Shown: positions 1 through 19,541, counted from the first letter of the stretch. The stretch: DNA of 64,000 nucleotides from Desulfobacterales bacterium (GCA_040771865.1 JAXGZF010000005.1:1-64000), one strand, 5' to 3'. Notes: a model not told the origin generated them from the letters alone. Numbers and translations are program-made.

Positions 1-325
1 TCACGGCGACGAGCGACATAGACGGCATTTCGGATGCCAGCGGTACGGTCACGGTAACGTCGGGCGCATTGTCGGCCCTTACGGTGAGTCCGGATACGGC
101 GACGCTGGCGGCCGGCGCAACCCAGCAGTTTACGGTAAGCGGCGTGGATGCAAGCGGCAATGCGGCGGATACAGGTGTGATCACCTGGAGCGTGAGCGGC
201 GGGATCGGCACGATTGATCCGGATACCGGAGTATTGACGGCGACCACGGCGGGCACGGGAACCGTCACGGCGACGAGCAGCCTGGGGGGTATATCGGATG
301 CCAGCGGAACGGTTACGGTGACCGA
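1..325 (+). repeat. Intragenic tandem repeat of an Ig-like unit, period 264 bp (88 aa)
   Basis: tcacggcgacgagc...tcggatgccagcgg occurs at 1 and again at 265; TATSDIDGISDASGTVTVT vs TATSSLGGISDASGTVTVT. Confidence 0.7.
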
Positions 326-3221: not shown

Positions 3222-3320
3222 CCCCCGTTCGTTCTCCCGCTCTGCTTTCCTGGGGAGCGGGCCGTGTGACGGCTGGTTTCAGGCCATGCTCGAAATCGGC
3301 TCATGATGGATTGTGATGAA

Positions 3321-3351
3321 AAAGGGGGGCACGCATCAAGTGCCCCCCTTT
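3321..3351 (+). terminator. Stem-loop, probable intrinsic terminator of the upstream surface-protein gene
   Basis: Perfect 12-bp inverted repeat aaaggggggcac / gtgccccccttt with a 7-nt loop, 100 bp after the stop; the U-tract is short. Confidence 0.5.
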
Positions 3352-3444
3352 GGGGGCAAGCAATCATGCTCGCGTGAACCGGGCTCAATTTTTTGGGTTG
3401 GCGCGGTTTTTTTTGATGTTCCAGATGCTGTCGCCTGATGAAAT

Positions 3445-3506
3445 TGTGTAAAAGCGTAACACCCGGAAACGGGCAAATTCGGGGCTTTTTGTAACGAAAT
3501 GTTACA
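3445..3506. promoter_or_regulatory. Two TGT-N11-ACA sites, candidate upstream activator sequences for an enhancer-binding protein
   Basis: TGTAAC-gaaat-GTTACA (3490-3506, perfect palindromic arms) and TGTGTA-aaagc-GTAACA (3445-3461), both upstream of a sigma54 motif. Confidence 0.6.
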
Positions 3507-3567
3507 GTTTGGAAAACTGCCAAACGGTAACCCCTTGTAATAATTGATATTAATAAATTCACCATAT

Positions 3568-3583
3568 TGGCGCGTTAATTGCT
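3568..3583 (+). promoter_or_regulatory. sigma54 (RpoN) -24/-12 promoter for the Rhs locus
   Basis: TGGCGC-GTTAA-TTGCT matches TGGCAC-N5-TTGCW with the exact GG-N10-GC spacing and is preceded by an AT-rich tract. Confidence 0.75.
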
Positions 3584-4283
3584 TTCATATTACACCTTGC
3601 GGCGACAAAATTGAAGACAGCATCTGCGAAAGCTCGATGGTTCGATGACACATCTATTTCAGGTGGATACGGCAACAAAGTTCCGGAACCCGCGTTCCAT
3701 TCCCTCTGTTTTACCAATCCCGATCGTTTCAAAATTTCGGTACTCCGTCTCGGGGAACCCCTCTATCCGGAATCCGCGGTTTGCTCAAATTCCACAAAAG
3801 CCTTTGACGATGGGTGGGAAACTCACAACAATTCATGGTCTTGTCTGCCGGGCTTAAAACCGAAGAATGCATATTATTTCAATTTGGATGAAATCGGACT
3901 TGGAAGGAAAGGCGATGGTAATGCGAAGAATCAAATGGGTTTCGATGCTGATTGGCCTGCTTGTTTTGCCGGCAACGGAACGGCTGCATTGCCGTTAGGA
4001 GAAGTTTCTTTTTATTGAACAAACGGAACTCCTTTTGGCCCGAATGTTTTAACCGCAAAAACCTGGACCCAAAAGGAAAGATTAATAAGATGTCCTCGGA
4101 ATTCCCGGCCGGAATTAATGGGAAATAAATTGAATGAGTTGAACAATGTCCCCTGTGCCAATGCTGCTGATAACTCTTGGGCGGGGGTACCTACTTTCAC
4201 ACTGAACCTGTCTATAGACATCGGCTTTATTGATAGCTGACGACATATTGAATCATTTTGGTTCCTGATAAATTGGAGGGGGT

Positions 4284-7200
4284 ATGGCCCACAAGGCTTC
4301 TGATTTTGTAAAATTGATTCTGCTGGCGACATTGACAGTTTGTGTTCTGTTCATGACTGGGGTGGAGGGAAGAACGGCTACAGTCTCGCTTGATTATTCA
4401 GCGGTGAATGTGGGGCAGACTGTCAGGGCCTCATGGACAGGTTTCACTGATATGGTCAATGTTTATGTATTGTATAGTTCAGGAACCCCATATGCTACTG
4501 CAAGTACAACTAATACCGCAGGTTATCAGGATTTGAATACTACGGGTTGGCCTATTAACAGCTATTACGTAAAGGTTGAACAAAAATCTAACACCGCAAT
4601 TTATGCAACATCACCTGTTTTTTCTGTTAATCCTATGCCCGACTTAGCTGCAGTAAGCGTCTGGCTCTCAAGCATCAGCACCCCAGGCACAGAATTGACC
4701 AGCCCCAAAGTCGGTGATAACGTCTATATCAATTTTCAGTTCAGGGTTGATAATGCGAGCGTTTATGCCCCAATAAAAATCAATGGCTATCTTGATGGTT
4801 CCTCAGTCTATTCAGCAAGCTACTCGCCGGTAACCCCTACCGGTACGTATAATCCATCAACGCAGACTTATTCCTACTATTGGACGGTAACAGCAGACCA
4901 GCACACAATCCAATGGGTTCTTGATGATGTTAATCAAGTGAAAGAAACAAATGAGAGCAATAATTCGTTGTCTCGCACTTACAATATTCTTAATCAAATA
5001 GATTTGGTAGCCGGTAATGTCGGCATAAAAGACGGAAGTGGTAATAATGCAAGTGGATTTGTAGGTCAGACGGTTTACTTCAGCTTCGATTACAGTATGG
5101 TCGGACAGGGTACATCAGCTCCTTTTAATATTTCTTGTGAACTGGATGGCAGTCCGTATTGGACGCAGTATAATGTCACTGCAACACAAGGCAGTTATTC
5201 GATATCGGCGCCTACCGGCTTTTTAGTTACAAATGCTTCTCACACGGTTACCTGGCGTTTGGATCCATCAAATAATATTCAAGAAACTAACGAATCGAAT
5301 AACGTTTCATCGACCGGTTGGACACCCGTACTCGTCAGTCCTCAAGTGACTGTCTCTCCAACCTCTGGCGTTCAGGGAACAACTTTCTCACAGCCCGGTA
5401 CGGGTTTCACACCGAATGGTGGGGTCACATTGCACTTTACCGGGCCGGATGGGCCGTCAACAGCATCCGAAACAGCGGGAGCAGATGGCGCATATGAACA
5501 TTTCTGGACATGCGACGCCTGTCCGGATGGGACGTATACATACTATGCCGTGGATGACGCCACCGGACAGTGGAGCAATACGGTGACGTTTACAGTGTAC
5601 GGCCTCAACCCGCAGGTAAGCGTGTCGCCGAACAGCGGACCACAGGGCACCACGTTCAGCCAACCGGGAACGGGGTTCACTCCGAACAGTGGAGTAACGC
5701 TTCATTTTGTCGGACCAGACGGCGAATCGACTGCGACGGAGACCACGGACGGCACGGGGGCCTATTCCCACAGCTGGCTGTGCGACGCCTGTCCGGTGGG
5801 TGAATACAGCTACTATGCCGCGGACAACGCCACTGGTCAGTCGAGCAATACGGTCACTTTTACGGTAGAACCACAAATTGCCGCCACTCCATTCCTCTCT
5901 CCTCTTTACCGCGGCTACAGCAGCGACGACACAGACCACTTCTACACCACCAACCCGGTGGAACGCGACGCAATGCCGGATAGCGGCTACACTTACGAAA
6001 AGGTCGAGGCCTATATATCCAATCGCGCTTTTGAAGGCGGCGTCCCGCTTCATCGGCTCTACAATTCAACAACCAAAAGCCACTACTACACCACCAGCGA
6101 TACCGAACGTGACACGGTCCTTGCAAATCCAGATTGGGAAGATGAGAAGGAAGCCGGCTATGTCTACCCGAATCATGCCGATTATCTAGTGCCCATGTAT
6201 CATCTTTATAGCGCCACGGCCGATGACCATTTTTACACTATTTCCGAATTCGAGCGCAGCAATGCCATAGAGAGCTTCGGCTATCAGGATATGGGGGTGG
6301 CCTTTTATGCAGCCAGGAATTCTTCCGCCGCTCCGCTGGCCGGAAAGCCGGTCGCCAGAAGGGGCGGAGTCGACCTTTCCTCGGGTAATTTCGTCCCTTA
6401 CCGGAACCATGTGGATTTCGCCAATCCTGCAGGTTTTGGGCTTCCTTTTGTTTTTGCACGGACCTACAATTCAGGCAATTCCGGAGAGGCCGGCCCCCTT
6501 GGTTCCGGGTGGACCCACAGTTACCAGATCCGAATCATAGACTTAGGAGGCATTGCCATCGTCAAATGGGGCAATGGCAGGGATGATTTATATGTGTACA
6601 ATGGTACAGCCTACACCCCGGCGCCCGGCGTATACAACCAGCTTCAAAAGACGTTTGGTTCGTACATTCTGACCACCAAAGATAAGACAATTTATACTTT
6701 TGCTTCATTGCCTTTGGGTGCTCCTGAAGATGGTCTTTTCGTGGGACGGTTGGTGGAAATTAAGGACCGCAATGGAATCGAACTCGAACTGGTGTATGAT
6801 GATGTTAAAGAAGGACTCTTGGATCATGTGATTGACGGTTCCAACCGCACCTATCAATTCCACTACATTCCGGTTGCCGGCGACCCCAGCCACCTGATTT
6901 CCGAATCCAACCGCTACCGGCTGAGCGGCATCACCGAGGAGAATGCCGGCGGTCTGAACCGCAGCATCGGTTTCGGTTATGACGTCATGAGCCGTTTGAC
7001 CAGCTACACCGATGCCGAAGGCAACATCACCTCCTATGCGTATGAGGATGCCGACAACCCCGGCCTGCTCACGAAGATCACCCTGCCGGAGCTCAACACC
7101 ATCACGGCTGACTACAACGGCGATAAACTGGACACCCTTGAGATCGGGTCAGGCGAAAACGTCGAAAAGACCATTCACCTTATTTATAACACGCCGATTC

Positions 7201-9884
7201 AGACACCGAACGGTTCGGTGGAGGGAACCCAGTACATCGTGCAGCCTGCTGGCGGCCCGGGCCAGACCGTATCGGTGACCCACGACCAACAATATAAACT
7301 GGGAATCGTCAAGGACGGTTTGAACAACCTGTCCGAAGTGCTTCAATACGACAACAATCTAAACCCCATTCAGATAAAGGACAAGAAAGGCCTCGTCTGG
7401 TTTTACAGCTGGAATTCTGCGACGGGCAATCTCACCGGAGTGGTCAATCCGGAAAACGAGGTGACCAACTACCAGTATGATCCGAATGAACCGAACAACC
7501 TCATCAGAATTACCGATCCCGCACTCAACGTCACTAAATTTGAGTACGATGACTATGGAAACGTAAAGAAAATTATTCACGTTGTCGATGGGACCGATCG
7601 GGAAACCATCATTACTCGAGACGGCAATGGCCAGATCCTATCCGTAACCACGCCTTCCAACAATCTGAACGGTATTGTCTCCACTGCGACCTTCACCTAT
7701 GATGCCTATGGGTACCTGCAGACGATTACCGATCCCGAGGGAAAAACCGCCGCCTTCGATTTTGACGAAGGCGGTCGGCTGCTTTCCAGGACCGATCCCG
7801 ATCTGGTGAGCATCAACTATACCTACTACCCGCTGAACCGAGTCAAGACCGCAAAGGACATGCTCGATCGGGTCACCTCCTATACCTACGACGGCAACGG
7901 GAACCTGGATACCATCAAAGATCCCCGAAACATCGTCACCGACTACGATTACACGGACCGTGACCTGGTGGAGACGGTCACCCAGGCGGGCGTGAGAATC
8001 GCCAAATACGGTTACGACGAATCCGCACGCCGCACCAGGGTGACCAATGCCATGGAGAGAACCTGGGAGAACAGCTTCGATCAGGCTGGAAACCTGAGGT
8101 CCAGCAAGACGCCTCTTGGGCTGATCGATTATTTTCACGACTATTATCCGGACGGCAGCCTTCAGAAGCAGGTGGACCGCACCAGCCGGGAAACCAGCTA
8201 TGCGTATGACGGCGCCGGGCGAATGACGCACAGGACCATCGCCGGCGGCAATTATTACGAATATGAATACTGGCCCAACAGCCTTTTAAAGGCGGTTTTA
8301 CGCAACGGCGGCCAGATCGGAAGCTTTCAATACGATGCCAGTGGAAACCTGACCGCCTATACGGATGCTTTTGGTCAGACGGTCAACTACACCTATCATC
8401 CGGGCGGCAATCTCAAGACGATCCAATATCCCGGCAATAAAATGGTTACTTACAACTACAACCTTCGCAATCTGCTATCCACCGTCTGCGACTGGCAGAA
8501 TCGAACCACCACTTATTCTTATACCGATGCAGGGCGTTTGAAAAAGATCGCCTATCCCAACGGCGCATACGTCGAATACGCCTACGATGCGTATTTCCGG
8601 CTTAAAACCGTGAGCAATAAGAAACCCGATGGAAGCGTGATCGTCGAATACACGGTCGACGAGTTTGATGAACTCGATGTGCCGCGGCAGGTGACGACCA
8701 CCGGCGGAATATCTGCGACGCATCCGGCTCTGTCTGAAAGCTATGTCCACGATGCCAACAACCGCATTACTTCCGCGGGAGGCACGACCTTTACCCATAA
8801 TGATATGGGTGAACTCCTGAGCCAAACCAGAAACGGCGTCGCCACCAATTTTACGTGGGATAGCGATGATCTGCCCGGACGCCTGAAGTCAATCAACGTG
8901 TCGGGTGCATCCAGGAGCTTCGAATACGACGGCCTCGGCAACCGCATTGCCGCCACCAGAGAAGAGGTAATCACCCGTTACGTGCTGGATCTTTCGGGCA
9001 GTATGGCCAACGTATTGGCCGAAACCGACGGCAGCAACAATGTGAATGCCTGTTACATCCATGGTCTCGGGATCATATCCAGAATTCTGCCCGACAACAC
9101 GGCCGTTTACTACCACTTCGACCGGCAGGGCAATGTTGTGGCGCTCACCGATGAATCCGGCAACGTCACCGACCAGTACGCCTACGATGCGGATCCCTTC
9201 GGCTTCGCCATGACCCGGCAGGGATCGACCGACAATCCATTTACTTTTGTGGGACGTTATGGGGTGATGGACGAGGGCGACAATCTTTTCTACATGCGGG
9301 CACGATACTACAATGCCGAAACAGGCCGTTTTTTAAATGAAGATCCCATTGGGTTTGGTGGGGGAGATTTGAATCTGTATGCTTATGTGGGGGGGAATCC
9401 GGTGGTGGGGATTGATCCAATAGGCCTCTTTGATTTAAAAAAGATTTTGAAAAATATAGGAGATATTGCGGGAGAGTTAAGCGGTGTTAATAATTGGATT
9501 AACGACATGAAGGTTCTTGAATCCTTTGTTGATAGCGTTGATATTTTAAAGTGTTATCAAAGTAGATATTCTGAAGGTAGTATGGAATATTTAAGGTTTG
9601 AAAGTAAAATCAACGCAGCAAAAGAGGAAGTTTATATATATCTCACTAATATTGTAAAGAAATATTCTTACGAAGCAATAAAGGATTATTCTTCAGATGC
9701 AATATTAGGAGAAATTTTGGGGAATGCTTTAGGGGTTATATCAACGATTAATAGGCTCAATCCGAACGGAGAACCCTACACCGTAGGAGATCTGTTAGTA
9801 GCGGAAACGGCTGGAGGAGATCTTGACTTAAATGATCCCAATGACAAAGCGATATCTGATATGCAAAAAAATATGGGGCAATAA
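4284..9884 (+). CDS. Secreted Rhs/YD-repeat protein: signal peptide, Ig-like, 2x CARDB-like, 2x 90-aa repeat, DUF5648-like, DUF6531-like, YD repeats, Rhs-associated core, variable C-terminal tip
   Basis: RBS ggagggg and a hydrophobic N-terminus. Motifs seen: D..N.V/I.ETNESNN x2; HFYT/HYYT triplet; 'GVDLSSGNF...FARTYNS...GPLGSGWTHSY'; many YD repeats; core 'YMRARYYNAETGRFLNEDPIGFGGGDLNLYAYVGGNPVVGIDPIGL'. Confidence 0.92.
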   Translation: MAHKASDFVKLILLATLTVCVLFMTGVEGRTATVSLDYSAVNVGQTVRASWTGFTDMVNVYVLYSSGTPYATASTTNTAGYQDLNTTGWPINSYYVKVEQKSNTAIYATSPVFSVNPMPDLAAVSVWLSSISTPGTELTSPKVGDNVYINFQFRVDNASVYAPIKINGYLDGSSVYSASYSPVTPTGTYNPSTQTYSYYWTVTADQHTIQWVLDDVNQVKETNESNNSLSRTYNILNQIDLVAGNVGIKDGSGNNASGFVGQTVYFSFDYSMVGQGTSAPFNISCELDGSPYWTQYNVTATQGSYSISAPTGFLVTNASHTVTWRLDPSNNIQETNESNNVSSTGWTPVLVSPQVTVSPTSGVQGTTFSQPGTGFTPNGGVTLHFTGPDGPSTASETAGADGAYEHFWTCDACPDGTYTYYAVDDATGQWSNTVTFTVYGLNPQVSVSPNSGPQGTTFSQPGTGFTPNSGVTLHFVGPDGESTATETTDGTGAYSHSWLCDACPVGEYSYYAADNATGQSSNTVTFTVEPQIAATPFLSPLYRGYSSDDTDHFYTTNPVERDAMPDSGYTYEKVEAYISNRAFEGGVPLHRLYNSTTKSHYYTTSDTERDTVLANPDWEDEKEAGYVYPNHADYLVPMYHLYSATADDHFYTISEFERSNAIESFGYQDMGVAFYAARNSSAAPLAGKPVARRGGVDLSSGNFVPYRNHVDFANPAGFGLPFVFARTYNSGNSGEAGPLGSGWTHSYQIRIIDLGGIAIVKWGNGRDDLYVYNGTAYTPAPGVYNQLQKTFGSYILTTKDKTIYTFASLPLGAPEDGLFVGRLVEIKDRNGIELELVYDDVKEGLLDHVIDGSNRTYQFHYIPVAGDPSHLISESNRYRLSGITEENAGGLNRSIGFGYDVMSRLTSYTDAEGNITSYAYEDADNPGLLTKITLPELNTITADYNGDKLDTLEIGSGENVEKTIHLIYNTPIQTPNGSVEGTQYIVQPAGGPGQTVSVTHDQQYKLGIVKDGLNNLSEVLQYDNNLNPIQIKDKKGLVWFYSWNSATGNLTGVVNPENEVTNYQYDPNEPNNLIRITDPALNVTKFEYDDYGNVKKIIHVVDGTDRETIITRDGNGQILSVTTPSNNLNGIVSTATFTYDAYGYLQTITDPEGKTAAFDFDEGGRLLSRTDPDLVSINYTYYPLNRVKTAKDMLDRVTSYTYDGNGNLDTIKDPRNIVTDYDYTDRDLVETVTQAGVRIAKYGYDESARRTRVTNAMERTWENSFDQAGNLRSSKTPLGLIDYFHDYYPDGSLQKQVDRTSRETSYAYDGAGRMTHRTIAGGNYYEYEYWPNSLLKAVLRNGGQIGSFQYDASGNLTAYTDAFGQTVNYTYHPGGNLKTIQYPGNKMVTYNYNLRNLLSTVCDWQNRTTTYSYTDAGRLKKIAYPNGAYVEYAYDAYFRLKTVSNKKPDGSVIVEYTVDEFDELDVPRQVTTTGGISATHPALSESYVHDANNRITSAGGTTFTHNDMGELLSQTRNGVATNFTWDSDDLPGRLKSINVSGASRSFEYDGLGNRIAATREEVITRYVLDLSGSMANVLAETDGSNNVNACYIHGLGIISRILPDNTAVYYHFDRQGNVVALTDESGNVTDQYAYDADPFGFAMTRQGSTDNPFTFVGRYGVMDEGDNLFYMRARYYNAETGRFLNEDPIGFGGGDLNLYAYVGGNPVVGIDPIGLFDLKKILKNIGDIAGELSGVNNWINDMKVLESFVDSVDILKCYQSRYSEGSMEYLRFESKINAAKEEVYIYLTNIVKKYSYEAIKDYSSDAILGEILGNALGVISTINRLNPNGEPYTVGDLLVAETAGGDLDLNDPNDKAISDMQKNMGQ
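5340..5867 (+). repeat. Two tandem 270-bp (90-aa) repeats, each with a CDAC motif, inside the Rhs gene
   Basis: PQVTVSPTSGVQGTTFSQPGTGFTPNGGVTLHF...WTCDACPDG...SNTVTFTV at 5340 and PQVSVSPNSGPQGTTFSQPGTGFTPNSGVTLHF...WLCDACPVG...SNTVTFTV at 5610. Confidence 0.85.
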
Positions 9885-9957
9885 AATATTCAGGTATTTT
9901 ATTGGAAAAATAAAAAAAGCCGTACTGCCATTTGATTTGGCAATGAGGTGATGCATT

Positions 9958-11646
9958 ATGAGTCGTAGAATATTTTTTTTAATATCAATTATATCAATTA
10001 TAATTGTGACTTTTTTTGGAAATGTTTTTGCTTTAAATTACGCAATAGTCTACGACGAGCTGCATCGTGTCATCCGTCTGGATTATTCGGATGGTACAAA
10101 TGTTATCTACAACTACGACAATTTAGGCAATCGCACCTCCAAAATCGTCACGGTTGCCAACACTACCATCGATGCGCAATTCACCTCCGACCTGACCAAC
10201 GGGTTGGCGCCGTTGCAGGTCGCCTTCACCGACCAGTCAGTTGGCAATATCACATCCTGGGAGTGGAATTTCGGCGACGGTCAAACCAGTACGGAGCAGC
10301 ATCCTGTCCACAGCTATGCCGACCCTGGAACTTATACGGTCAGCCTTACCGTAAACGGGCCGGACGGCTCGGACGCCATCAGCATTCCAAGCTATATCAC
10401 GGTCGGCGACGGTCAGGGCAGCCCGGTACTTTCCGTTTCTCCATCGACTCGAAGCGTTTCCGCAGGCGCTGGATCCACAATCTTCAGCGTTGACAACACA
10501 GGCAGCGGAGTTATGAACTGGACCGCGGTTTCCAACGATTCGTGGCTGACGATTGCCGGCGGCAGCCCCGGCACGGACAGCGGCGTCATTACGGTCAGCT
10601 ACACAGCTAACGACGGCGCGGTGCGGACCGGATCAGCAACCGTGACAGCCCCGGGCGCTTCAAACAGTCCTCAGACCGTAACGGTCTCCCAGGCCCAGGG
10701 CGCCATCGATCTGGATCTGTCAGCAAACTCGCCGGCGGGCGGGGAGGTCTGGACCCTCGGCTCGACATACGCCATAAGCTGGACGGCATCTTCACCCTTC
10801 GGCATCAACGAGATTCGGTTATATTATCATTACAATGGGGAAACCCTTTCCATTGTGACGCTCGATGGTCAAGAAACGGAGTATGCCTGGACCATTCCCG
10901 GCAATGGCGCTTATATTTCGCAGGACGCTAGAATACGAATCGTTGCGTTCGACGGCAACGGCGGCCAGGCGGAAATTTACAGCCCCTCTTTCAGCGTTCA
11001 GGACGGCGAATCTCCGCCGCCCCCCTGGCAGGTTCCGGAAAAGTTGACAACATCCGATAACAGCCAGAACTACATTTCGCAATCGAATTCCCGGGGCGCC
11101 ATCGCAACCGACAGCCTCGGGAATGTCCACCTGGCGTATCTGTTCACCCAGGACGATCTCAGCGACATTGTATCGGGCGGCAGCGGAAACAGAATCATAA
11201 CCCAGAAGATTTTCTATCGGAAAAAGACCGGCGGCACATGGTCCGCTCCAACCGAGCTGTACAGCCTGACGTCGACAACGGACTCGAATTTGATTGGGCA
11301 TCGTCCCTTCAGCGAGCTTCGCATTGCCGTGGACGCACAGGACAACCCGCATATTGCCTGGGTGTTTGGAGGCGCCAATACCGCTTCATGCGATGGGTGG
11401 AATGGAAATGAAATTTATGCCGTTTCTTTTGATGGAACAGCCTGGCTTCCGCCGGTGAATGTTTCGAACAATGCCACGTATTCCTATTTTCTCGATATCG
11501 CGGCGGATACAGCCGGCAATGTGCATTTTGTGTGGATCGACGGCAGAACCTTTGAAGCGAATAGTTGCACTTCCTCCGGAACCCGTACGGTATACCACGG
11601 CATCCGTTTTGCAAATGGCGACTTTCCGACGCGGCGCCGGTCGTAG
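9958..11646 (+). CDS. N-terminal part of a frameshifted multidomain secreted protein: signal peptide, short YD-repeat module, PKD, BACON, Ig-like, start of a beta-propeller
   Basis: RBS gaggtg; signal ending VFA|LN; YDELHRVIRLDYSDGTNVIYNYDNLGNRTS; PKD 'SWEWNFGDGQTSTEQHPVHSYADPGTYTVSLTV'; BACON 'WTAVSNDSWLTI'; repeated IA.D..GN.H..W blades. Confidence 0.85.
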   Translation: MSRRIFFLISIISIIIVTFFGNVFALNYAIVYDELHRVIRLDYSDGTNVIYNYDNLGNRTSKIVTVANTTIDAQFTSDLTNGLAPLQVAFTDQSVGNITSWEWNFGDGQTSTEQHPVHSYADPGTYTVSLTVNGPDGSDAISIPSYITVGDGQGSPVLSVSPSTRSVSAGAGSTIFSVDNTGSGVMNWTAVSNDSWLTIAGGSPGTDSGVITVSYTANDGAVRTGSATVTAPGASNSPQTVTVSQAQGAIDLDLSANSPAGGEVWTLGSTYAISWTASSPFGINEIRLYYHYNGETLSIVTLDGQETEYAWTIPGNGAYISQDARIRIVAFDGNGGQAEIYSPSFSVQDGESPPPPWQVPEKLTTSDNSQNYISQSNSRGAIATDSLGNVHLAYLFTQDDLSDIVSGGSGNRIITQKIFYRKKTGGTWSAPTELYSLTSTTDSNLIGHRPFSELRIAVDAQDNPHIAWVFGGANTASCDGWNGNEIYAVSFDGTAWLPPVNVSNNATYSYFLDIAADTAGNVHFVWIDGRTFEANSCTSSGTRTVYHGIRFANGDFPTRRRS

Positions 11647-14327
11647 ATGCGCTTTACTATGGAAATTATCCTGCCCTTTGCGGCGGGCAGAACGGTAAAA
11701 TGTACCTTATATTTACCAATAGTTCTAAAGAGATGGAATATACTTCATGGGATCAAGGGCAATGGGCCGCGCCCGAGGTTATCAGACCCGTTGCCGGAGA
11801 CTATTACTATAAAGACATTGCGGCGGATAGCGCAGGCAATATTCATGTGGTTTTTGATGAAATGCAAGAGTCCCCTTTTTCCCGCGCCATCCAATACATG
11901 TCGTTTAATGGAACGGAGTGGTCCGAACCGGAAAAAGTCTCTTTTGGCGAAGACGGTTTCGATAAGATTCCGACTCTTTCGATCAGCGAGGCGGGGGCGC
12001 CGCAGGTTGTCTGGTACATGGGCATGACTTATACTGAGGACTCCCGGCTGCTCTATCGGCAGCGGCTGGACCAGGGATGGAGCGGCGCCGTTCAGTTGAA
12101 CACCCCGTCGAGCAATCCCGAGTATGCAGGGATAAATTCCGTTTCAGCGGCCATTTCAACAGGGAATGTTCTCCATCTTGTTTGGCAGGCTGTTTACAAC
12201 GGCTGCAGCGAGGTTTACTATGCCGCCGCGAGCATTTCTGCGTCTGATTTGGTAAATCCGGGCGCGATTGCCGTTCCCGCCACCGACCCTGACGGCAACT
12301 ATTCTGTGACCTGGGGGCCTTCTCCTACCGAAGGAGTCGCCTATGTTCTGGAAGAGGCAACGGACAGCGCGTTTACAGAAGGACTTCGAACAGCCTATAC
12401 TGGAACGGAGCCAGGCGCCGACATCAGCGGGCGTGAAATCGGAACCACATATTATTACCGGGTAAAAGCCGTCAAGCCGGGTTTCGCGGACAGCGGATGG
12501 ACCCTCGGCGCCAATGGTTGCGAGGTGAGTTTAGGCCCCGGCGGATCAAGCTGCGTTGTATCGGGTCGTGTGACGGTCAACAATCTTCCGGCCGGCTGGA
12601 CTTATGGCGAATCGACTATTTGTTTTTCCGATGGAGTTCACCCCGATGTCGGCGTTCAAACGGACGCGGACGGCAACTACAGCGCCGCCCTTTTCCCGTC
12701 CACGTACGAAGTTCGTTTGGGTAGCAATTGGTGGAATTATAATGGAGGCGAGTATATAGGTATATCTTATTCAGCGCATTCCAACTTCAGCGTATCGTCC
12801 GACGCCGTTTTGGACATTGTCGTTCCAACCGTGCTTCTGTCCGGCGTCGTTTACGACAGCAACGGATCGCCGGTGCCGGACACTCGGGTCGAATGTTACT
12901 ATGATGGGGGAAGCTCATATTGGACGACATCCGCCGACGGGTCATTCAAACTTCTTCTTCTGCCCGGCACCCATACGCTGACCGTTCGTCCTCCGGCCGC
13001 CTTGTATCCTCCATTTTATCTGCAAGATGTTTCATTTTTGGACAATACGGTGCGGAACATCATATTGGGCGTTCTACCCCTGTCGCCGGTACCCGATACC
13101 GGCCAGACCCAATGTTACGACGCGGCCGGAAATGTGATTCCCTGCCCCCAGCCGGGCGAGGCGTTTTACGGCCAGGACGGCAATTATACCATCAACCCGC
13201 CCTCCTATACCAAGCTGGATGCCAGCGGCAACGACCTGCCGGAATCGGCCGAATCCTGGGCCATGGTGCGCGACAACGTCACCGGGCTGGTCTGGGAGGT
13301 CAAGCAGAACAAGGACGAAATCCAAGATTATACCAACCCCCATGACGCGGACAATACCTACACATGGTACGACAGCAACCCGGCCACCAACGGCGGCTAT
13401 GCCGGCACTCCGGGGGACGGCACCGACACCGAAGATTTCATCGCCGCGCTGAATGCGGAAAACTTCGGCGGGTATTCTGACTGGCGCCTGCCGACGCCCC
13501 GCGAGCTTAGCAGCATCGAGAATTACGGCCGCTACAATCCAACCATCAATCGAGACTTTTTTCCGGACACGCAACCGTCCGACTACTGGTCGTCTACTAC
13601 CTTCGTCGCCAACTTCGTCCCCAACTTTACCGAGGTCGCCTGGTTCGTGGCTTTCAAATATAGCGGCAGCAGCGACATGCTTAAGTCGGACTCCTTCTTC
13701 GTTCGGGCGGTGCGCGGCGGACAGACTTCAAACCATTTTGTCGACAACGGCGACGGTACGGTAACGGACACGGCAACCGGCTTGATGTGGCAGCAGACCA
13801 CGGCGCCAGGAACATACACCTGGCAGGAGGCCCTTTCCTATTGCGAGGGGTTGAGTCTGGCCGGCCATACGGACTGGCGGTTGCCGACCATCAATGAACT
13901 GGGATCCATCGTGGATCTCGCAGAATTCATCCCGAGCATCAATCGGGACTTTTTTCCGGACACCCAACCGTCCTACTACTGGTCGTCTACTACCAATACC
14001 GACCCCTACAATACCGTCTGCGCCAGTAGCATGGACTTTTGTTATGGCCACGAGTACAACTGGCGCGGTAAGTCGAACTCCGACTTCGTTCGGGCGGTGC
14101 GCAGCGTAAAGTCCGGGTGGCTGGATGATCCGGTAATCGGCGATCTCAACGGCAACGGCGAGGTGAATCTGACCGATGCGATTCTGGCGTTGCAGGTTGT
14201 CGTGGGCGCGAATCCTTCCGCAATCCGTTCCGATTATGCTGCATCGGGCGCGGATGTGGACGGCGACGGCAAAATCGGCCTGGCCGAGGCGATCTATGCC
14301 CTGCAGAAAACAGCGGGCCTTCGGTGA
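11565..14327 (+). CDS. C-terminal part of the same gene (homologous reading from ~11626): propeller blades, FN3, carboxypeptidase-regulatory-like modules, 2x DUF1566 (Lcl C-type-lectin-like), dockerin-like domain
   Basis: Continues the IAADSAGNIHVVF blades; FN3 'YYYRVKAV'; DUF1566 'VRDNVTGLVWE...DWRLPT..EL...YWSST...FVRAVR' twice; dockerin 'GDLNGNGEVNLTDAILALQ...ADVDGDGKIGLAEAIYALQ'. It has no signal peptide of its own. Confidence 0.85.
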   Translation: MHFLRNPYGIPRHPFCKWRLSDAAPVVDALYYGNYPALCGGQNGKMYLIFTNSSKEMEYTSWDQGQWAAPEVIRPVAGDYYYKDIAADSAGNIHVVFDEMQESPFSRAIQYMSFNGTEWSEPEKVSFGEDGFDKIPTLSISEAGAPQVVWYMGMTYTEDSRLLYRQRLDQGWSGAVQLNTPSSNPEYAGINSVSAAISTGNVLHLVWQAVYNGCSEVYYAAASISASDLVNPGAIAVPATDPDGNYSVTWGPSPTEGVAYVLEEATDSAFTEGLRTAYTGTEPGADISGREIGTTYYYRVKAVKPGFADSGWTLGANGCEVSLGPGGSSCVVSGRVTVNNLPAGWTYGESTICFSDGVHPDVGVQTDADGNYSAALFPSTYEVRLGSNWWNYNGGEYIGISYSAHSNFSVSSDAVLDIVVPTVLLSGVVYDSNGSPVPDTRVECYYDGGSSYWTTSADGSFKLLLLPGTHTLTVRPPAALYPPFYLQDVSFLDNTVRNIILGVLPLSPVPDTGQTQCYDAAGNVIPCPQPGEAFYGQDGNYTINPPSYTKLDASGNDLPESAESWAMVRDNVTGLVWEVKQNKDEIQDYTNPHDADNTYTWYDSNPATNGGYAGTPGDGTDTEDFIAALNAENFGGYSDWRLPTPRELSSIENYGRYNPTINRDFFPDTQPSDYWSSTTFVANFVPNFTEVAWFVAFKYSGSSDMLKSDSFFVRAVRGGQTSNHFVDNGDGTVTDTATGLMWQQTTAPGTYTWQEALSYCEGLSLAGHTDWRLPTINELGSIVDLAEFIPSINRDFFPDTQPSYYWSSTTNTDPYNTVCASSMDFCYGHEYNWRGKSNSDFVRAVRSVKSGWLDDPVIGDLNGNGEVNLTDAILALQVVVGANPSAIRSDYAASGADVDGDGKIGLAEAIYALQKTAGLR
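13544..13715 (+). repeat. DUF1566 C-terminal repeat copy 1 (DGR variable-repeat-like)
   Basis: 13544-13601 matches 13937-13994 at 55/58 nt and 13682-13715 matches 14069-14102 at 31/34 nt; the middle is highly divergent and rich in NNC/NNT codons. Confidence 0.7.
13937..14102 (+). repeat. DUF1566 C-terminal repeat copy 2 (DGR variable-repeat-like)
   Basis: Same conserved flanks as copy 1 (tactggtcgtctactacc ... ttcgttcgggcggtgcgc). Confidence 0.7.
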
Positions 14328-14518
14328 AAGGGAGAGAAAAGCGGTCCGGGTTGATAGGGCAGGGATTTGTCGGCGGAAAACCGCCCTGAGTTCATGTTTG
14401 TGTTGCAGCCGGCGCCTCCCTGGCTTTATTATAGGGCAGTCTGGCCGCCCATATCGATGTCCGGTTTTTTCAGGCCAGCTCTATTCCGTGCGAAAAGTAG
14501 GCGGATAAGGGTGAAAAA

Positions 14519-15961
14519 ATGATGAGCGGGCTGAAGCGCTTTGCCTCGGGCGCGGTCGGAACCTTTCTGTGGGGTCTTGTCCTGGCGGCGGCGTTTTTCG
14601 GTCCGGCGCCGGCGCCGGCTTTCCAGATGGTCATCGATGATGAGAGTTTGACCATCGACGCCGAGCGGGTCCCGCTGTCTGAAATCCTGCAACGTCTGGC
14701 TGAATCCGGGGTGCGGATCCACATCGCTCCGGATATCGGGCACGAGGTCACGGCCCGCTTTGACCGCCGCCCTCTCGCCGCCGGCCTGGCCGCGATTTTG
14801 CGTCCGCTGAACCATTCGCTGATCTGGGAAACCATTCAGACCCCCCTCGGGCCTGTGCAGCGGTTGGTTGAAATCTCGGTGTTTCGCGCCGAAGACCCCC
14901 GGCCCGGTCCTGTTGTGTCCGCATCCCGGCCGGTTCTAAAGATCCGCACCGATTCGAAGACCGGGGCCTGCTACCTGGATCGCCAGGTGATGATCGCTTT
15001 TGACCGGACCATGGATATGGCCGGTTTCAAGGCGCTTCTGTTGCGCATCGGAGGGCGTTTGATCGACGTGGATCCGGTTCTGGGCGTTTACCGCATCGCC
15101 GTTTCCGAAGACGAAGACATTCCAGGGCTCTGCCGACGCCTGGTTCTGGAACCGGGGGTGGCGGCGGCTGAGCCGAATTATGCTTATCGAATGCAGCCCG
15201 CTATTCCCCGGCCGCTCATTGACGGTCCCGTAGCCGCTTTACCCTTTCAAAGGCCGTCTTTTTTGAATGATATTGCGCCGGTTGCCGTGCTGGATAGCGG
15301 CTGGCGCGCGGATCCGGCCTATTCGAACGCCGTGGCGGCCGCTTACGACGCCCTGGCCCCGAATGCGCCCATCGACGACGCGGTAGGACACGGAACCCAG
15401 ATGGCGCTGATCGCGTCCGGTTTAATCCATCCGCTGGGGACGGAGGAGAATAGGCCGGACAGCCTTGTTCCGGTTGTGGCCGTGCGGATTTTCGACGACA
15501 ACGGCTATACCGACGGCAGCGTCTTGATGCGGGGGATCGACTTCGCCTTAAAGTCCGGCGCCCGGGTGATCAGCCTGAGCTGGGGCTCCGAAACGCCCAG
15601 CGCATTCATGGAGCAGGCCGTAAATACGGTTCGAGATCGCGGCGCCGTGGTGGTGGCGTCGGCGGGCAACGAAAATACGGGAAAACCGGTCTATCCGGCG
15701 GCTTATGAAGCGGTTGTGGGCGTGGGCGCTTTGAATCCGGAAGGCGCCGTCTGGCCCCGATCCAACCAGGGCGATTTTGTAGACCTGCTGGCGCCGGGAT
15801 TCGCCTCGCTTCCGGTGGGCAGCCAGGGCGAGGCGCCGGGGGCCTATGCCGGAACCTCCATCGCCGCCGCCTACACCGCCTGCCGCCTGGCTCTCGAACT
15901 CTCTCGAAATCCCGACGCATTGGCCGCCGAGGTTCTGGAATCCCAACTGAAATCCCGTTAG
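14519..15961 (+). CDS. S8 subtilisin-like serine peptidase with a signal peptide, an N-terminal STN/secretin-N0-like domain and a propeptide-like domain
   Basis: Catalytic motifs VAVLDSG (Asp), GHGTQMA (His), SAGNE (oxyanion Asn) and GTSIAAA (Ser). N-terminal 'LTIDAERVPLSEILQRLA...VTARFDRRPLAAGLAAIL' is STN-like. Confidence 0.88.
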   Translation: MMSGLKRFASGAVGTFLWGLVLAAAFFGPAPAPAFQMVIDDESLTIDAERVPLSEILQRLAESGVRIHIAPDIGHEVTARFDRRPLAAGLAAILRPLNHSLIWETIQTPLGPVQRLVEISVFRAEDPRPGPVVSASRPVLKIRTDSKTGACYLDRQVMIAFDRTMDMAGFKALLLRIGGRLIDVDPVLGVYRIAVSEDEDIPGLCRRLVLEPGVAAAEPNYAYRMQPAIPRPLIDGPVAALPFQRPSFLNDIAPVAVLDSGWRADPAYSNAVAAAYDALAPNAPIDDAVGHGTQMALIASGLIHPLGTEENRPDSLVPVVAVRIFDDNGYTDGSVLMRGIDFALKSGARVISLSWGSETPSAFMEQAVNTVRDRGAVVVASAGNENTGKPVYPAAYEAVVGVGALNPEGAVWPRSNQGDFVDLLAPGFASLPVGSQGEAPGAYAGTSIAAAYTACRLALELSRNPDALAAEVLESQLKSR

Positions 15962-16033
15962 AAGGCAGCCTTGCTTCATCTTCCGCAAGCCGGAAATTCC
16001 GCTTTCCGGTCGCGGCGGGCGGGGGCGTTTTTC

Positions 16034-16516
16034 TCAGTGCGTGATCCTGATCGGCGGCAGCTTTACTGTTGCCTTCAATTCCTTGAGCGCATCGCTCATC
16101 AACTGGATTTCATGAATCTGAATTTGCGTCCGGTCTGCCTGGGTTTTTTGGACCACCTCGAATGTCAGGGTGAAGATGGGGAATTTTTCTCCCTTGATTC
16201 CGGCGGCGCCGGCCATGACCAGGATGAGTCGCCCGGGTTTTTTGTCGTTGACGATGTGCATCAGGGGTGCCGTGTGCGAGGTCTTGTTCCCGCCTTTGTA
16301 TTGTAAAACCTTTGGATCGTAGGTCATCGCCAGCTTGACGCCGGCCAGGTTGTCCGCCTGATCGAGCGTCAGAGGAACGGTGATCGTCTCGCCGGGTTTG
16401 GCCTGAATGTCCGGAATGGAAAGCTCGACGCCCCATGCCGTGGACAGGGACGAAAGAAAAAAGAGTCCGAAGATCAGGAATCCGAACAACCTCGCCGCCG
16501 TTTGTATCATCGCCAA
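16034..16516 (-). CDS. Secreted single-domain cohesin-like protein
   Basis: RBS aaggag; signal ending AWG|VE; 'LSIPDIQAKPGETITVPLTLDQADNLAGVKLAMTYDPKVLQY...PGRLILVMAGAAGIKG...IFTLTFEV' follows the cohesin pattern. Confidence 0.8.
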   Translation of the reverse strand: MAMIQTAARLFGFLIFGLFFLSSLSTAWGVELSIPDIQAKPGETITVPLTLDQADNLAGVKLAMTYDPKVLQYKGGNKTSHTAPLMHIVNDKKPGRLILVMAGAAGIKGEKFPIFTLTFEVVQKTQADRTQIQIHEIQLMSDALKELKATVKLPPIRITH

Positions 16517-16603
16517 AACGCTCCTTGATTCAAGTACATAGAGTAGCGATCATACGTGAATTTCATTACAAGGGCAATGGTTTCCTGACGGCTTTGCAAA
16601 AAC

Positions 16604-18532
16604 TCAGGACGGCTGCCGATGCATTCCGGGTCCGGAATTGCCGGCCTGAAGAGAGATCTCTTCGAGCTGTTCCCAGCGGGCATAGGCCGCTTCAAGGTCC
16701 TGCTCCAGTTTTTCAAGTTCGGTCTGCATGCGGGCGATTCCGTTTCCTGAGGTTTTATAGAGTTCAGGATCGGCCATGGCAATAAAAAGTTCGGTTTTCC
16801 GGGCTTCCAGGGATTCGATCGTTTCCGGCAGTTTTTCGAGTTCGCGCTGCTCCTTGAAGGTGAGCTTTCGTATGCTTGCGGGAGCGCTTTTGGGTCTGGG
16901 CTTTTTGGAGGGCGGCTTTGGAGCGGATGGTTCGGGCTCCGGCCGCTGGTTCAGCCAGTCGTCATAACCGCCCGCGTACTGACGAACCCTTCCCCGGCCT
17001 TCAAAAACCAGGGTGGATGCGGCCACGTTGTTCAGAAAGGTTCGGTCATGGCTGACCATCAGAACCGTTCCCGCATAATCGACCAGCATGGCCTCGAGAA
17101 GTTCCAGTGATTCCACATCCAGGTCGTTGGTGGGCTCGTCGAGAACCAGCACGTTGGACGGCCTTGTGAACAGCCTGGCCAGAAGCAGACGGTTGCGCTC
17201 TCCGCCGGAAAGGCGGGAGATGGGCGCCCGGGCCTGGTCGGGTGAAAACAGAAAATCCTGAAGATAGCCGATCACGTGCCGGGCCCTGCCGTTGACCACC
17301 ACCGTGTCGCCGTCCTCGACCACGTTCTGCTGAACGGTTCTGCTTTCATCGAGACGGGCCCTGAGCTGGTCGAAATAGGCGATCTGAAGACGGGTTCCAT
17401 GGCGTACAAAGCCGCTATCCGGCGCGATTTCGCCCAGCAGGATGCGCAGCAGGGTGGTTTTGCCGCATCCGTTGGGCCCGATGACGCCCACCTTGTCGCC
17501 CCGCATGATGGTTGCTGAAAAATTTTCGATCAGCGGGCGGTCTTCGAAGGAAAAGCAAAGATTTTCGGCATGAATGACCAGACGGCCCGAACGCTCGGCC
17601 TCCTGCTGCAGGAACCTTATATTTCCGCTCCGGGACCGGCGTTTTGCAAACTCTTCCCGCAATTTCACAAGCGCCCGCACCCGGCCCTCGTTGCGGGTGC
17701 GTCTGGCCTTGACTCCCTGCCGGATCCAGGCCTCTTCGCGCTGAAGTTTTCTGTCGAATTCCGCGTTCCGGGTTTCCTCGTTTTCGATCATGGCCTGTTT
17801 TCGGGTCAGATAGCGTTCGTAGCCGCCGGCAAAGGAGATCAGGGTCCCGCGGTCCAGCTCCACAATCCGGGTGGCCAGGCGCTTGAGAAAGGCGCGGTCG
17901 TGCGTGACAAAAACCAGGGTTCCGGCCGATTTCAGCAGATAGTCCTCCATCCACGCGATGGATTCGATATCCAGGTGGTTGGTCGGCTCGTCCAGCAGCA
18001 GAATGTCGGGATCACTCACCAATGCCCGGGCCAGGTGCGCCCGGCGTTTATAACCGGCCGAGAGCGTTTCGCAGCGCGTGTCGGCATTCAGACCCATGCG
18101 GGAGATGACGCTTTGAACCCGCTGGTGAAGCTGCCAGGCGCCGGCGGCATCAAGATCCTGCTCAATTTCGTTCAGGCATTCCAGGCCGGACGGATCGGAG
18201 TTTTCCTCAAGCGTCAGGCTGAGCCGGCGATGCTTCTTGAGCAATGCCGCATGATCCGGTTGACCGGATGCGGCGACCTCGTAAATCGTGCCGCTCAGGT
18301 CGGCCGGCGCTTCCTGTATCAGCAGGGCGGTTTTAAGACCCGGAGTTCTGGCGACCGTGCCGCTGTCCGGCAGGAGTTCACCGTGAATCAGTCTCAGCAG
18401 GGTGGACTTGCCCGCGCCGTTCCGTCCGATGACGCAGATCCTTTCTCCGGCTTCGATCTGAAGATCCGCGTTTTCGATCAGGGCCGGATCGCCGAAGCCG
18501 ATTCCGACATTTTTTAAGCTTATCAAGGCCAT
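16604..18532 (-). CDS. uup: ABC-F family ATPase Uup
   Basis: Two ABC cassettes (GRNGAGKST, GPNGCGKTT, LDEPTN x2), 'WIRQGVKARRTRNEGRVRAL' linker and C-terminal coiled coil 'KLTFKEQRELE'. Confidence 0.93.
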   Translation of the reverse strand: MALISLKNVGIGFGDPALIENADLQIEAGERICVIGRNGAGKSTLLRLIHGELLPDSGTVARTPGLKTALLIQEAPADLSGTIYEVAASGQPDHAALLKKHRRLSLTLEENSDPSGLECLNEIEQDLDAAGAWQLHQRVQSVISRMGLNADTRCETLSAGYKRRAHLARALVSDPDILLLDEPTNHLDIESIAWMEDYLLKSAGTLVFVTHDRAFLKRLATRIVELDRGTLISFAGGYERYLTRKQAMIENEETRNAEFDRKLQREEAWIRQGVKARRTRNEGRVRALVKLREEFAKRRSRSGNIRFLQQEAERSGRLVIHAENLCFSFEDRPLIENFSATIMRGDKVGVIGPNGCGKTTLLRILLGEIAPDSGFVRHGTRLQIAYFDQLRARLDESRTVQQNVVEDGDTVVVNGRARHVIGYLQDFLFSPDQARAPISRLSGGERNRLLLARLFTRPSNVLVLDEPTNDLDVESLELLEAMLVDYAGTVLMVSHDRTFLNNVAASTLVFEGRGRVRQYAGGYDDWLNQRPEPEPSAPKPPSKKPRPKSAPASIRKLTFKEQRELEKLPETIESLEARKTELFIAMADPELYKTSGNGIARMQTELEKLEQDLEAAYARWEQLEEISLQAGNSGPGMHRQPS

Positions 18533-19273
18533 TTACTCGGCTCTTTCATCGAATTCGGGCAGGGGGCAGGCGCGGCCTTTCACATAGGCCTCGTCCGGTT
18601 CGAGGTTTTTCCCTTCGGCGGCCTGAACGGCCAGGGCGTCGCAGCGCTCGTTTTCCGGGTGTCCGGCATGGCCGCGCACCCAGACAAACCGCACCCGGTG
18701 AAACTCGCACAGTTCCAGGAGTCTTGCCCAGAGGTCGCAGTTTTCGGCGCGCTCGCTTTTCGTGCGCATCCAGTTGTTGGCCCTCCATTTTCGGGCCCAG
18801 CCCAGGGAGATGCCGTTGACCACGTAGCGTGAATCGCTGTGAAGCACGATGTCGGAGGGCGTTTTAATGGCTTCAAGCGCCGCGATGCAGGCCATCAGTT
18901 CCATGCGGTTGTTGGTGGTCCGCGCAAATCCCCGGCAAATCTCGGTCCGTTCATTCCGGTCAACGATGATTGCCGCATATCCGCCGGGCCCGGGATTTCC
19001 CCGGCTGCTTCCGTCGGTGTAAACGAAAATTGCGCCGGCGGGCGTTTCGACGGCTTCGCCCTGGACTGGAAGACGGTCGGTTCCGGCCGGCGCGCTGGCA
19101 TAAGACGGATTTTGAATCCATTGACGGGCCTCGTCCTCGGTCTCAAAACCCTTGAACCTGGCGCCGGCGTAGCCGCGAACCTGGACCTCGGCGCCGTCCG
19201 GTCCGAACCAGGCGGTATAGATGCCGGGCTTCCGGCCCCTGGCAACCGCATAATATTTTTTGGGTTTTCCCAT
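18533..19273 (-). CDS. rnhA: Ribonuclease HI with an N-terminal hybrid-binding (Cauli_VI-type) domain
   Basis: KYYAVARGRKPGIY N-domain; YTDGSSRGNPGPGG, TTNNRMEL, DSRYV, WVRGHAGHPENERCD. Confidence 0.95.
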   Translation of the reverse strand: MGKPKKYYAVARGRKPGIYTAWFGPDGAEVQVRGYAGARFKGFETEDEARQWIQNPSYASAPAGTDRLPVQGEAVETPAGAIFVYTDGSSRGNPGPGGYAAIIVDRNERTEICRGFARTTNNRMELMACIAALEAIKTPSDIVLHSDSRYVVNGISLGWARKWRANNWMRTKSERAENCDLWARLLELCEFHRVRFVWVRGHAGHPENERCDALAVQAAEGKNLEPDEAYVKGRACPLPEFDERAE

Positions 19274-19541
19274 GCGATGCTTCCTTTAGATCCGCAAGGT
19301 ATTTCGAACTGAGAATCCGGTTGTTTCCGGCGTTCGTCCCGTCCATTCATCATGGTCGTCACCAAGCTGATGAATGAGGGGATGAGTTTAGTACAATTTG
19401 GCAATTTATGCCACAGGCGGGTTTGATTGAAATTTCAACCATGGGCATGGTTTGACATCAACGGTTGTCAAGGGCGGGATTGGCGCTTTTACGCTCAAAG
19501 CGCGTCCGGTCTTCGAGGGAATAAATGAGCATCATCGCCGG

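Follow-up and report, generated by a model that had tools for sequence, protein, structure and literature searches.

In the textbook picture, the cellulosomes of Gram-positive bacteria are held together by the pairing of cohesin and dockerin modules. A non-cellulosomal variant of this assembly principle is encoded near one end of a contig from an uncultured Desulfobacterales bacterium found in digester and wastewater samples. The DNA analyzed here, referred to as the window, comprises the first 64,000 nucleotides of contig C5 of this genome (GCA_040771865.1 JAXGZF010000005.1:1-64000), and the genes in question lie between positions 3,445 and 16,516. They encode a Rhs protein, a lectin-type adhesin that ends in a dockerin, a subtilase with an unusual first domain, and a stand-alone cohesin; a fifth gene, for a membrane protein with half a dockerin, lies at the far edge of the same genomic island. 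With a somewhat better than even prospect of being right, we read this island as holding two neighbors rather than one machine, namely a standalone Rhs cage and a minimal non-cellulosomal cohesin-dockerin module. The module is widespread in Desulfobacterales and Syntrophales. Its interest lies in a different use of the cellulosomal pairing by sulfate reducers and syntrophs, anaerobes with two membranes, in which one tiny, anchorless cohesin faces a set of dockerin-tailed proteins (proteases, inhibitors, lectins, and giant adhesins) that numbers up to ~40 per genome. The window offers a minimal and compact test case, with four clonable proteins for studies of binding, competition, location, and processing. 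The neighboring Rhs protein is of interest in its own right, as a Sec-exported cage around a presumed cargo that lacks a clear relative.

The cohesin of the window consists of a signal peptide and a single cohesin domain (PF00963, 49.8 bits against a cut-off of 24.1), an architecture shared by a family of small proteins, eight members of which are 42-50% identical to one another. Species-representative genomes yielded 76 loci of this family, nearly all from Desulfobacterales or Syntrophales as judged by record title; the cultivable species Desulfatibacillum alkenivorans and Desulfonema magnum are represented among them. The family profile matched solved cellulosomal cohesins (E 2.5e-11) and a Clostridium acetobutylicum cohesin over its full length, and the residues that are invariant in the family are retained in the host protein. 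The dockerin at the end of the adhesin scored 23.3 bits with PF00404 (cut-off 22.9) and E 1.9e-26 with a profile of its own subtype; this profile gave full-length matches to the solved dockerins 2y3n_B and 6kg9, besides EF-hand proteins. Searches with Pfam and, for the dockerin, also with the subtype profile revealed one cohesin and one dockerin in the genome (2.98 Mb in 13 contigs, 98% complete), located 1.7 kb apart.

The association of the two modules extends beyond this genome. Among 301 genomes of the order, the sample used for all co-occurrence counts, the cohesin was present in 53 and the dockerin subtype in 68; all 53 cohesin genomes carry the dockerin subtype, and the cohesin was found in none of the 233 genomes without it. 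The preliminary description of this DNA had proposed a cohesin-dockerin tether, and the single-copy pair and its co-occurrence across genomes speak for one, while the binding itself we infer: the cohesin presumably binds the adhesin's own dockerin. Five related genomes contain 6, 10, 40, 41, and 44 matches to the dockerin subtype, so the usual ratio is one cohesin to many dockerins, and the host genome is the minimal case of this pattern. In three genomes with 40-44 such matches (G006, G024, and G147), several of the dockerins end open frames of 3000 to more than 10000 codons. The cargo encoded near the related cohesins comprises subtilases of the S8-PA type, peptidases of the C13, C10, and M10 types, a serpin, and beta-helix, RCC1, and giant Ig-type proteins. 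The serpin (L048:1182-3425) carries an internal dockerin and lies 6.5 kb from a small cohesin, placing a protease inhibitor among the dockerin cargo.

The preliminary description had noted an absence of glycoside hydrolases, which was borne out by a Pfam scan in which no such family matched any open reading frame (ORF) of the island, and no glycoside hydrolase or other carbohydrate-active enzyme (CAZyme) family was matched among 44 neighboring proteins scanned at related cohesin loci. No scaffoldin with several cohesins was found in the host genome, whose sole cohesin resides on a 160-amino-acid protein, and this protein has no SLH, sortase, or PEP-CTERM anchor module.

The adhesin is the host's only dockerin-bearing protein, and its gene is split into two ORFs in the window. 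These overlap by ~80 nt in different frames, and the strand-rich repeats of the product continue across the break. Logan contigs of four public runs were aligned to positions 9900-14400, and contigs of 468 and 248 nt, from two runs belonging to two studies, contain one extra T behind position 11622 and are otherwise identical to the window; one of these runs may be the source sample, so that only the second study is independent, and gaps in the depth of the aligned contigs carry no meaning. With this additional T, the gene reads as a single ORF of ~1456 codons, and either an error in the assembly or variation between strains accounts for the split. The restored product begins with a signal peptide, followed by a YD hairpin (RHS_repeat, 24 bits; TIGR01643, E 0.002), PKD, BACON, and Ig-like domains, a BNR-like propeller, an fn3-like domain, CarboxypepD_reg, two Lcl_C domains, and the dockerin. 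The single multidomain protein with YD, DUF1566, and dockerin parts that the preliminary description had proposed thus exists as one frame in public contigs with all of these domains matched, even though a one-base gap splits its gene in the window. Full-length relatives of the adhesin were also sought as a test of the frame; the 25 matches were all mosaic and, the window's own product aside, covered 6-38% of the query, so that the frame was settled by the public contigs instead. Weak NCBIfam similarities to the adhesins Lsa25, FimD, and Lcl were all below the cut-offs. The two strong Lcl_C domains recall Lcl, the Legionella collagen-like adhesin, but the protein described here has no collagen-like region, and its Lcl_C domains stand at the end of a PKD/BACON/propeller protein, followed by the dockerin.

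The gene that follows encodes a subtilase zymogen, in which a signal peptide precedes an N0/STN-like domain (residues 35-122), a fervidolysin/I9-like prodomain (142-224), and an S8 catalytic domain. The triad D259, H291, and S447 and the oxyanion residue N384 are invariant in 21 subtilase sequences, and the model of the protein (predicted local distance difference test score, pLDDT, 86.6) matched unprocessed pro-subtilisins (E 4e-19). When folded alone, the first domain reached a pLDDT of 92.7, and its best Foldseek match was the N0 domain of PilQ (E 3.7e-3). A VIA search, which does not depend on Foldseek, placed it near the N0 domains of PilQ, PulD, and GspD, the signaling domains of FecA, PupA, and PupR, and DotD, at Z 6.0-7.6. 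As they stay under 8, these values may indicate no more than a shared arrangement; the root-mean-square deviation from N0/STN structures was 2.5-3.2 Å over 68-76 of 94 residues, and N0, STN, or DotD-type domains made up most of the top 20 rows. The fold is therefore that of the secretin N0 and STN domains (PilQ 4av2/4ar0, PulD 6hcg, GspD 3ezj/4jtm, FecA 1zzv, PupA 2a02, PupR 6ovm), with the difference that here it precedes a subtilase prodomain rather than a secretin or receptor. The STN-like domain assigned earlier to this S8 protease accordingly stands at the level of fold, with moderate scores, but not as a sequence family, since neither the STN nor the GspD_N0 model gave a Pfam match in the subtilase at E 0.01.

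Of the 301 genomes, 33 carry a full-length ortholog of the subtilase (37-73% identity), always a single one except in G002, in which the match falls in two adjacent pieces. The cohesin occurs in 23 of these 33 genomes, as opposed to 30 of the 268 that lack the enzyme. Three of 20 ortholog loci, representing three further families (L156/G088, L162/G147, and L164/G062), have the dockerin gene(s) first, then the N0-subtilase, and then the cohesin, all on one strand. A recurrent linkage of the window's genes had been suggested as a test of the proposed system, and this order represents the part of it that recurs, whereas the Rhs core, the Rhs tip, and Lcl_C were found at none of the 76 cohesin loci and none of the 20 subtilase loci. 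The subtilase is a recurrent companion of the cohesin-dockerin module and not an obligate one. At L162 and L164, a gene for an outer-membrane protein of the FadL/Toluene_X type heads the block, before an S8-PA-dockerin protease. Elsewhere, a YD/adhesin-like match 9 kb from a subtilase ortholog (L152) turned out to contain neither YD nor dockerin, its similarity being limited to BACON repeats, and was set aside.

Clustering of the neighbors of the 76 cohesins exposed a further family, of ~150 amino acids, that no Pfam family matched. Its members contain an N-terminal hydrophobic membrane segment, one dockerin-like calcium loop with its helix, a second helix resembling the end of a dockerin, and a C-terminal proline-rich motif. 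The gene adjoins the cohesin in 10 of the 76 loci, and at L156 as well, and the protein was found in 35 of the 301 genomes, 32 of which also hold the cohesin. The host encodes this half-dockerin protein at the far edge of the same island, as indicated by its position at the end of contig C3 beside the glgP flank. Structure prediction with cohesin residues 29-160 and half-dockerin protein residues 50-168 gave a complex with a score of 0.84, while the best of three controls scored 0.01; 58 of 80 solved complexes and two of 110 mismatched pairs attained this mark, counts that hold only roughly here because our own alignments were used. The runs agreed in at least 61% of contacts, the partner had a pLDDT of at least 57, and 10 of the 24 cohesin residues in the predicted interface are family invariants. 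The cohesin is thus predicted to bind the half-dockerin protein, through a site that we take to be the usual dockerin face, and the half-dockerin protein and the cargo dockerin would therefore compete for it.

A working model of the module can be outlined from these parts. All of them would be exported through the inner membrane by Sec. The adhesin's dockerin, folded with calcium, would plug into the conserved face of the cohesin. This face is also predicted to accept the half-dockerin, and the small membrane protein that bears it may hold the cohesin at the envelope or hand it over there. The subtilase zymogen might process or release dockerin-bearing cargo or another envelope protein. The site of cohesin-dockerin binding, in the periplasm or at the surface, and any role of the subtilase are likewise inferred.

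The Rhs protein stands apart from this scheme. It begins with a signal peptide, CARDB and Ig-like repeats, and DUF5648, and continues with a DUF6531 plug (PF20148, E 2.6e-13), RHS repeats (PF05593, E 2.7e-56, nine stretches), and a Rhs-associated core (TIGR03696, residues 1637-1715). A double DPxG(F/L) motif, read from the translation at the end of the core, marks a putative self-cleavage site. The tip beyond it yielded a single match, at E 1.1e-4, among 1.84 billion representative sequences, no usable Atlas match, and no Pfam match below E 0.001; G+C content is 0.41 over positions 9001-10000, compared with 0.52-0.63 in most other 1-kb stretches of positions 1-19000. The earlier picture of a Rhs protein with adhesin-like N-domains outside any type VI secretion system (T6SS) agrees with the CARDB and DUF5648 domains and with the genome at large, in which neither PAAR (PF05488) nor TssC/VipB (PF05943) was matched anywhere. 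The reported absence of an immunity gene was likewise confirmed: the Rhs stop codon is separated from the following start codon by just 73 nt, too short a gap to hold an immunity ORF where one would normally stand, and the gene directly 3′ encodes the secreted protein of ~1456 amino acids described above. The N-terminal 689 residues of Rhs found partial, domain-wise matches only, in 15 of the 301 genomes. Since no Rhs gene occurs at the 76 cohesin or 20 subtilase loci, its assignment to a common system was not upheld. The Rhs protein looks like an independent, mosaic, Sec-exported surface or secreted protein of the polymorphic-toxin type that shares only the island, and it is probably tied to the other three genes by neighborhood alone. 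A second Rhs protein of this genome (C6:5383-9945, minus strand, locus L040; 1520 amino acids) has its own, different tip, which matches the Serum amyloid A family (PF00277, E 3.9e-26), and its gene is flanked by transposase genes of the Mutator and rve types.

The stretch from the Rhs gene to the cohesin gene lies in the 13 kb at the right-hand end of the island, which is at least 17.6 kb long, specific to this strain, and inserted between glgP, encoding glycogen phosphorylase, and an ABC-F gene. In a comparison of window positions 1-20000 with a genome of the same genus (G001), positions 1-16628 had no DNA match, and the match resumed at 16629 and continued rightward at 89% identity. The ABC-F gene of G001 abuts glgP and housekeeping genes, and the glgP of the host genome (95% identical) lies at C3:581611-584100, ~1 kb from the end of contig C3 at 585094; the extent of the insertion follows from the missing match in G001 together with this position of glgP. 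An attempt to bridge the gap between the contigs with metagenome contigs returned one unrelated 1.3-kb contig (39% identity). Public contigs that carry window DNA came from anaerobic-digester and wastewater metagenomes. Table 1 lists the features of the island and its surroundings.

Table 1. Features of the island and its flanks, with coordinates in the window unless a contig is given.
Feature	Position	Strand	Basis or remark
Stand-alone secreted cohesin, signal peptide + one cohesin, 160 amino acids	16034..16516	-	Genome's only cohesin
Adhesin gene, ~1456 amino acids, read as two ORFs in window	9958..14327	+	Pfam, NCBIfam, public contigs
5′ ORF of split adhesin gene, 562 amino acids	9958-11646	+	YD at residues 32-65, PKD, BACON
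3′ ORF of split adhesin gene, 920 amino acids	11565-14327	+	CarboxypepD_reg, two Lcl_C, dockerin
T-run, one T short in window relative to public contigs (frame break)	11623..11625	+	Public contigs
Two Lcl_C domains (PF07603, formerly DUF1566)	13263..14102	+	E 2.2e-30 and 5.3e-34; genome's only ones
C-terminal dockerin, Desulfobacterota subtype ending ...AGLR	14130..14324	+	Genome's only dockerin
Pro-subtilase, 480 amino acids	14519..15961	+	Pfam, models, alignment
Half-dockerin protein, 168 amino acids, last gene of contig C3, next to glgP	C3:584476-584979 (L188:977-1480)	+	Family member, E 6.4e-30
Sec-signal Rhs/YD cage protein, 1866 amino acids	4284..9884	+	Pfam, NCBIfam, translation
C-terminal Rhs tip, residues 1716-1866, 151 amino acids, presumed caged cargo	9429..9881	+	After core end
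Candidate sigma54-type -24/-12-like site, one mismatch	3568..3582	+	700 nt upstream of Rhs start
Sigma70-like promoter, consensus match only (9/12 positions)	16549..16577	-	Just upstream of cohesin start
Large surface-type protein gene, 3′ part, open at contig start	3..3221	+	Big_2, CarboxypepD_reg matches
Right-hand island edge	16604..16629	.	Synteny with G001 begins at end of ABC-F gene

Several known systems share parts with the module and with its Rhs neighbor. Single-cohesin proteins exist in cellulosomes, such as OlpA and OlpC of Acetivibrio thermocellus and ScaE of Ruminococcus flavefaciens, and the module resembles the cellulosome in combining a true cohesin with a true, duplicated calcium-loop dockerin and in setting one small cohesin before several dockerin-tailed proteins. 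It differs in having a host with two membranes, no glycoside hydrolase in the scanned cargo, no multi-cohesin scaffoldin, and no SLH, sortase, or PEP-CTERM anchor on the cohesin; as for cargo, the window encodes a lectin-type adhesin, and relatives encode proteases, a serpin, and giant Ig proteins. Sec-dependent polymorphic toxins of the Rhs/YD kind are represented by WapA of Bacillus subtilis, and a Rhs cage by that of the TcB-TcC toxins. The Rhs protein of the window shares with these the RHS repeats, a core with a double DPxG motif, a tip of low G+C that may be of the variable kind, and a signal peptide in place of PAAR/VgrG, but it has no immunity gene downstream, its tip lacks a clear homolog, and its N-terminus is composed of CARDB, Ig-like, and DUF5648 domains.

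The closest precedent lies in the same phylum-level group. Murali et al. (2023; PMC10553843) group proteins with cohesin/dockerin, CARDB, and S8 domains as putative adhesins of the syntrophic sulfate-reducing partners of ANME archaea, and report these adhesins to be highly expressed and transferred between clades. In the text consulted, their treatment is a list of domains that does not mention the family of small cohesins, the half-dockerin protein, the N0-subtilase, or a connection to secretin genes. Earlier work on methane-oxidizing consortia suspected a role of such proteins in cell-cell contact, without giving an assembly or a location. The system of the window had been called undescribed, which is too strong for its components, given this listing, and may hold for the module itself: a limited literature search for a non-cellulosomal or secretin-linked cohesin-dockerin module gave cellulosome papers only.

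A number of observations weigh against the division of the island into a Rhs cage and a separate module, or against details of the latter. The Rhs and adhesin genes are on the same strand, 73 nt apart, and the adhesin starts with a YD hairpin, so a functional link between them may exist. The island spans the assembly gap between contigs C3 and C5, and its middle lies in that gap. The sampled genomes are kin, and Fisher values for co-occurrence consequently overstate independence. Although a dockerin-bearing ORF was found in the fetched flank of 24 of the 76 cohesin loci, in most cases no more than 3 kb away and in the same orientation, a rough estimate puts the 24 loci with a dockerin gene within 10 kb at only about two- to three-fold above chance, as there are up to ~40 dockerins per 5-6 Mb genome, and this proximity deserves little weight. 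Varied other neighbors surround the subtilase at 17 of its 20 loci, and eight of the 33 subtilase genomes are devoid of any dockerin, making the enzyme an accessory rather than a fixed part. The score of the predicted complex may reflect likeness to solved cohesin-dockerin complexes, because the two contacting helices are dockerin-like. Furthermore, a picture in which one cohesin holds anchor and cargo together fails as it stands, given that the cohesin has no anchor module and that the half-dockerin is predicted on the same face as the cargo dockerin.

Two other readings concern the island as a whole. The preliminary description had combined the four products into one machine, in which the subtilase matures a lectin adaptor that is tethered through dockerin and cohesin and touches the Rhs shell by its YD hairpin. 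Its observations are sound in part: all four genes lie in one island, the three plus-strand genes have gaps of only 73 nt (Rhs/adhesin) and 191 nt (adhesin/subtilase), the YD hairpin at the adaptor N-terminus is real, and a basic and then hydrophobic N-terminal stretch, the basis on which signal peptides were judged by eye, was read in each of the four translations, as had been claimed. The sigma54 promoter that was to link the three genes is, however, only a candidate, a one-mismatch site of a kind that occurs four times in the window against 4.39 expected from shuffles, which is no better than chance, and a promoter and terminator scan placed, without being decisive, a terminator-like hairpin between the adhesin and subtilase genes. 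The Rhs cage is already complete with plug, repeats, and core, and it has no ortholog in 300 genomes of the order beyond partial domain matches; together with the absence of Rhs and Lcl_C from the cohesin and subtilase loci of relatives, this leaves the single machine highly improbable. At the other extreme, the island might be a plain neighborhood of horizontally acquired secreted proteins that do not interact, with the cohesin and dockerin as leftovers of the larger system of relatives. An island that is absent from a same-genus genome, a small genome (2.98 Mb) with one dockerin where relatives have up to 44, and an adhesin gene that is frameshifted in the host assembly would all suit such decay, which is nevertheless hard to reconcile with the intact adhesin frame in two public data sets, the retained invariant residues of the cohesin, the intact triad of the subtilase, and the keeping of four families (cohesin, dockerin, N0-subtilase, and half-dockerin protein) in one island. 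We regard it as distinctly improbable.

A different kind of alternative assigns the module to secretion, and it is rather unlikely, although it draws on several features of the related loci. Here a periplasmic cohesin and the membrane-anchored half-dockerin protein would read C-terminal dockerins as a sorting tag and pass the cargo to a type II or MSHA-like secretin machine, at which the N0-like domain of the subtilase would dock. Within 6 kb of the cohesin, a secretin gene occurs in 14 of the 76 loci and a gene for a T2SSE/MshEN ATPase in 15. At three loci checked with Pfam (L091, L108, and L112), secretin and ATPase genes lie directly upstream of the cohesin on the same strand, accompanied by GspC-like, AAA_22, and TPR genes, with the gene for a giant dockerin protein downstream. 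A single anchorless cohesin facing 6 to 44 dockerin proteins per genome would suit an adaptor, as would a subtilase domain with the fold by which secretins bind GspC. The host genome contains two secretins; both are on contigs other than that of the window, however, so the cohesin is not adjacent to either, the full cassette was seen mostly at loci with Syntrophales record titles, and secretin linkage in relatives is no evidence on the window itself. Moreover, dockerins need calcium to fold, and we know of no precedent for a dockerin as an export tag. The most explicit form of the proposal, in which the C-terminal dockerin of two-membrane Desulfobacterota serves for sorting and not just for plugging in at the surface, the small periplasmic cohesin, held by the half-dockerin protein, hands dozens of dockerin-tailed proteases and adhesins to a secretin/MshE-type machine and the N0-subtilase docks there and processes them, is unlikely to hold in all its steps; if true, it would make the window its smallest natural version, with a single copy of each part: cohesin, cargo, protease, and half-dockerin. 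The reading as a Rhs cage beside a minimal cohesin-dockerin module remains the one we favor.

Five long ORFs, including the two halves of the split adhesin gene, occupy positions 4284 to 16516. Upstream of the Rhs gene, positions 3222-4283 form an unusually long non-coding stretch of ~1.06 kb, whose sole ORF (3611-4018; 135 amino acids, TTG start, no family) is doubtful, and an Rfam scan of positions 3100-4400 gave two matches, both at chance level. Sigma54_activat was not matched in a scan limited to 14 ORFs at 18.5-40 kb and the ORFs of the island, and no tRNA gene was found in positions 1-25000. The genes past 18.5 kb are devoted to core metabolism and signaling. The surface-type protein gene that is open at the contig start belongs to the same island, outside the set of genes considered here, and starts within the assembly gap.

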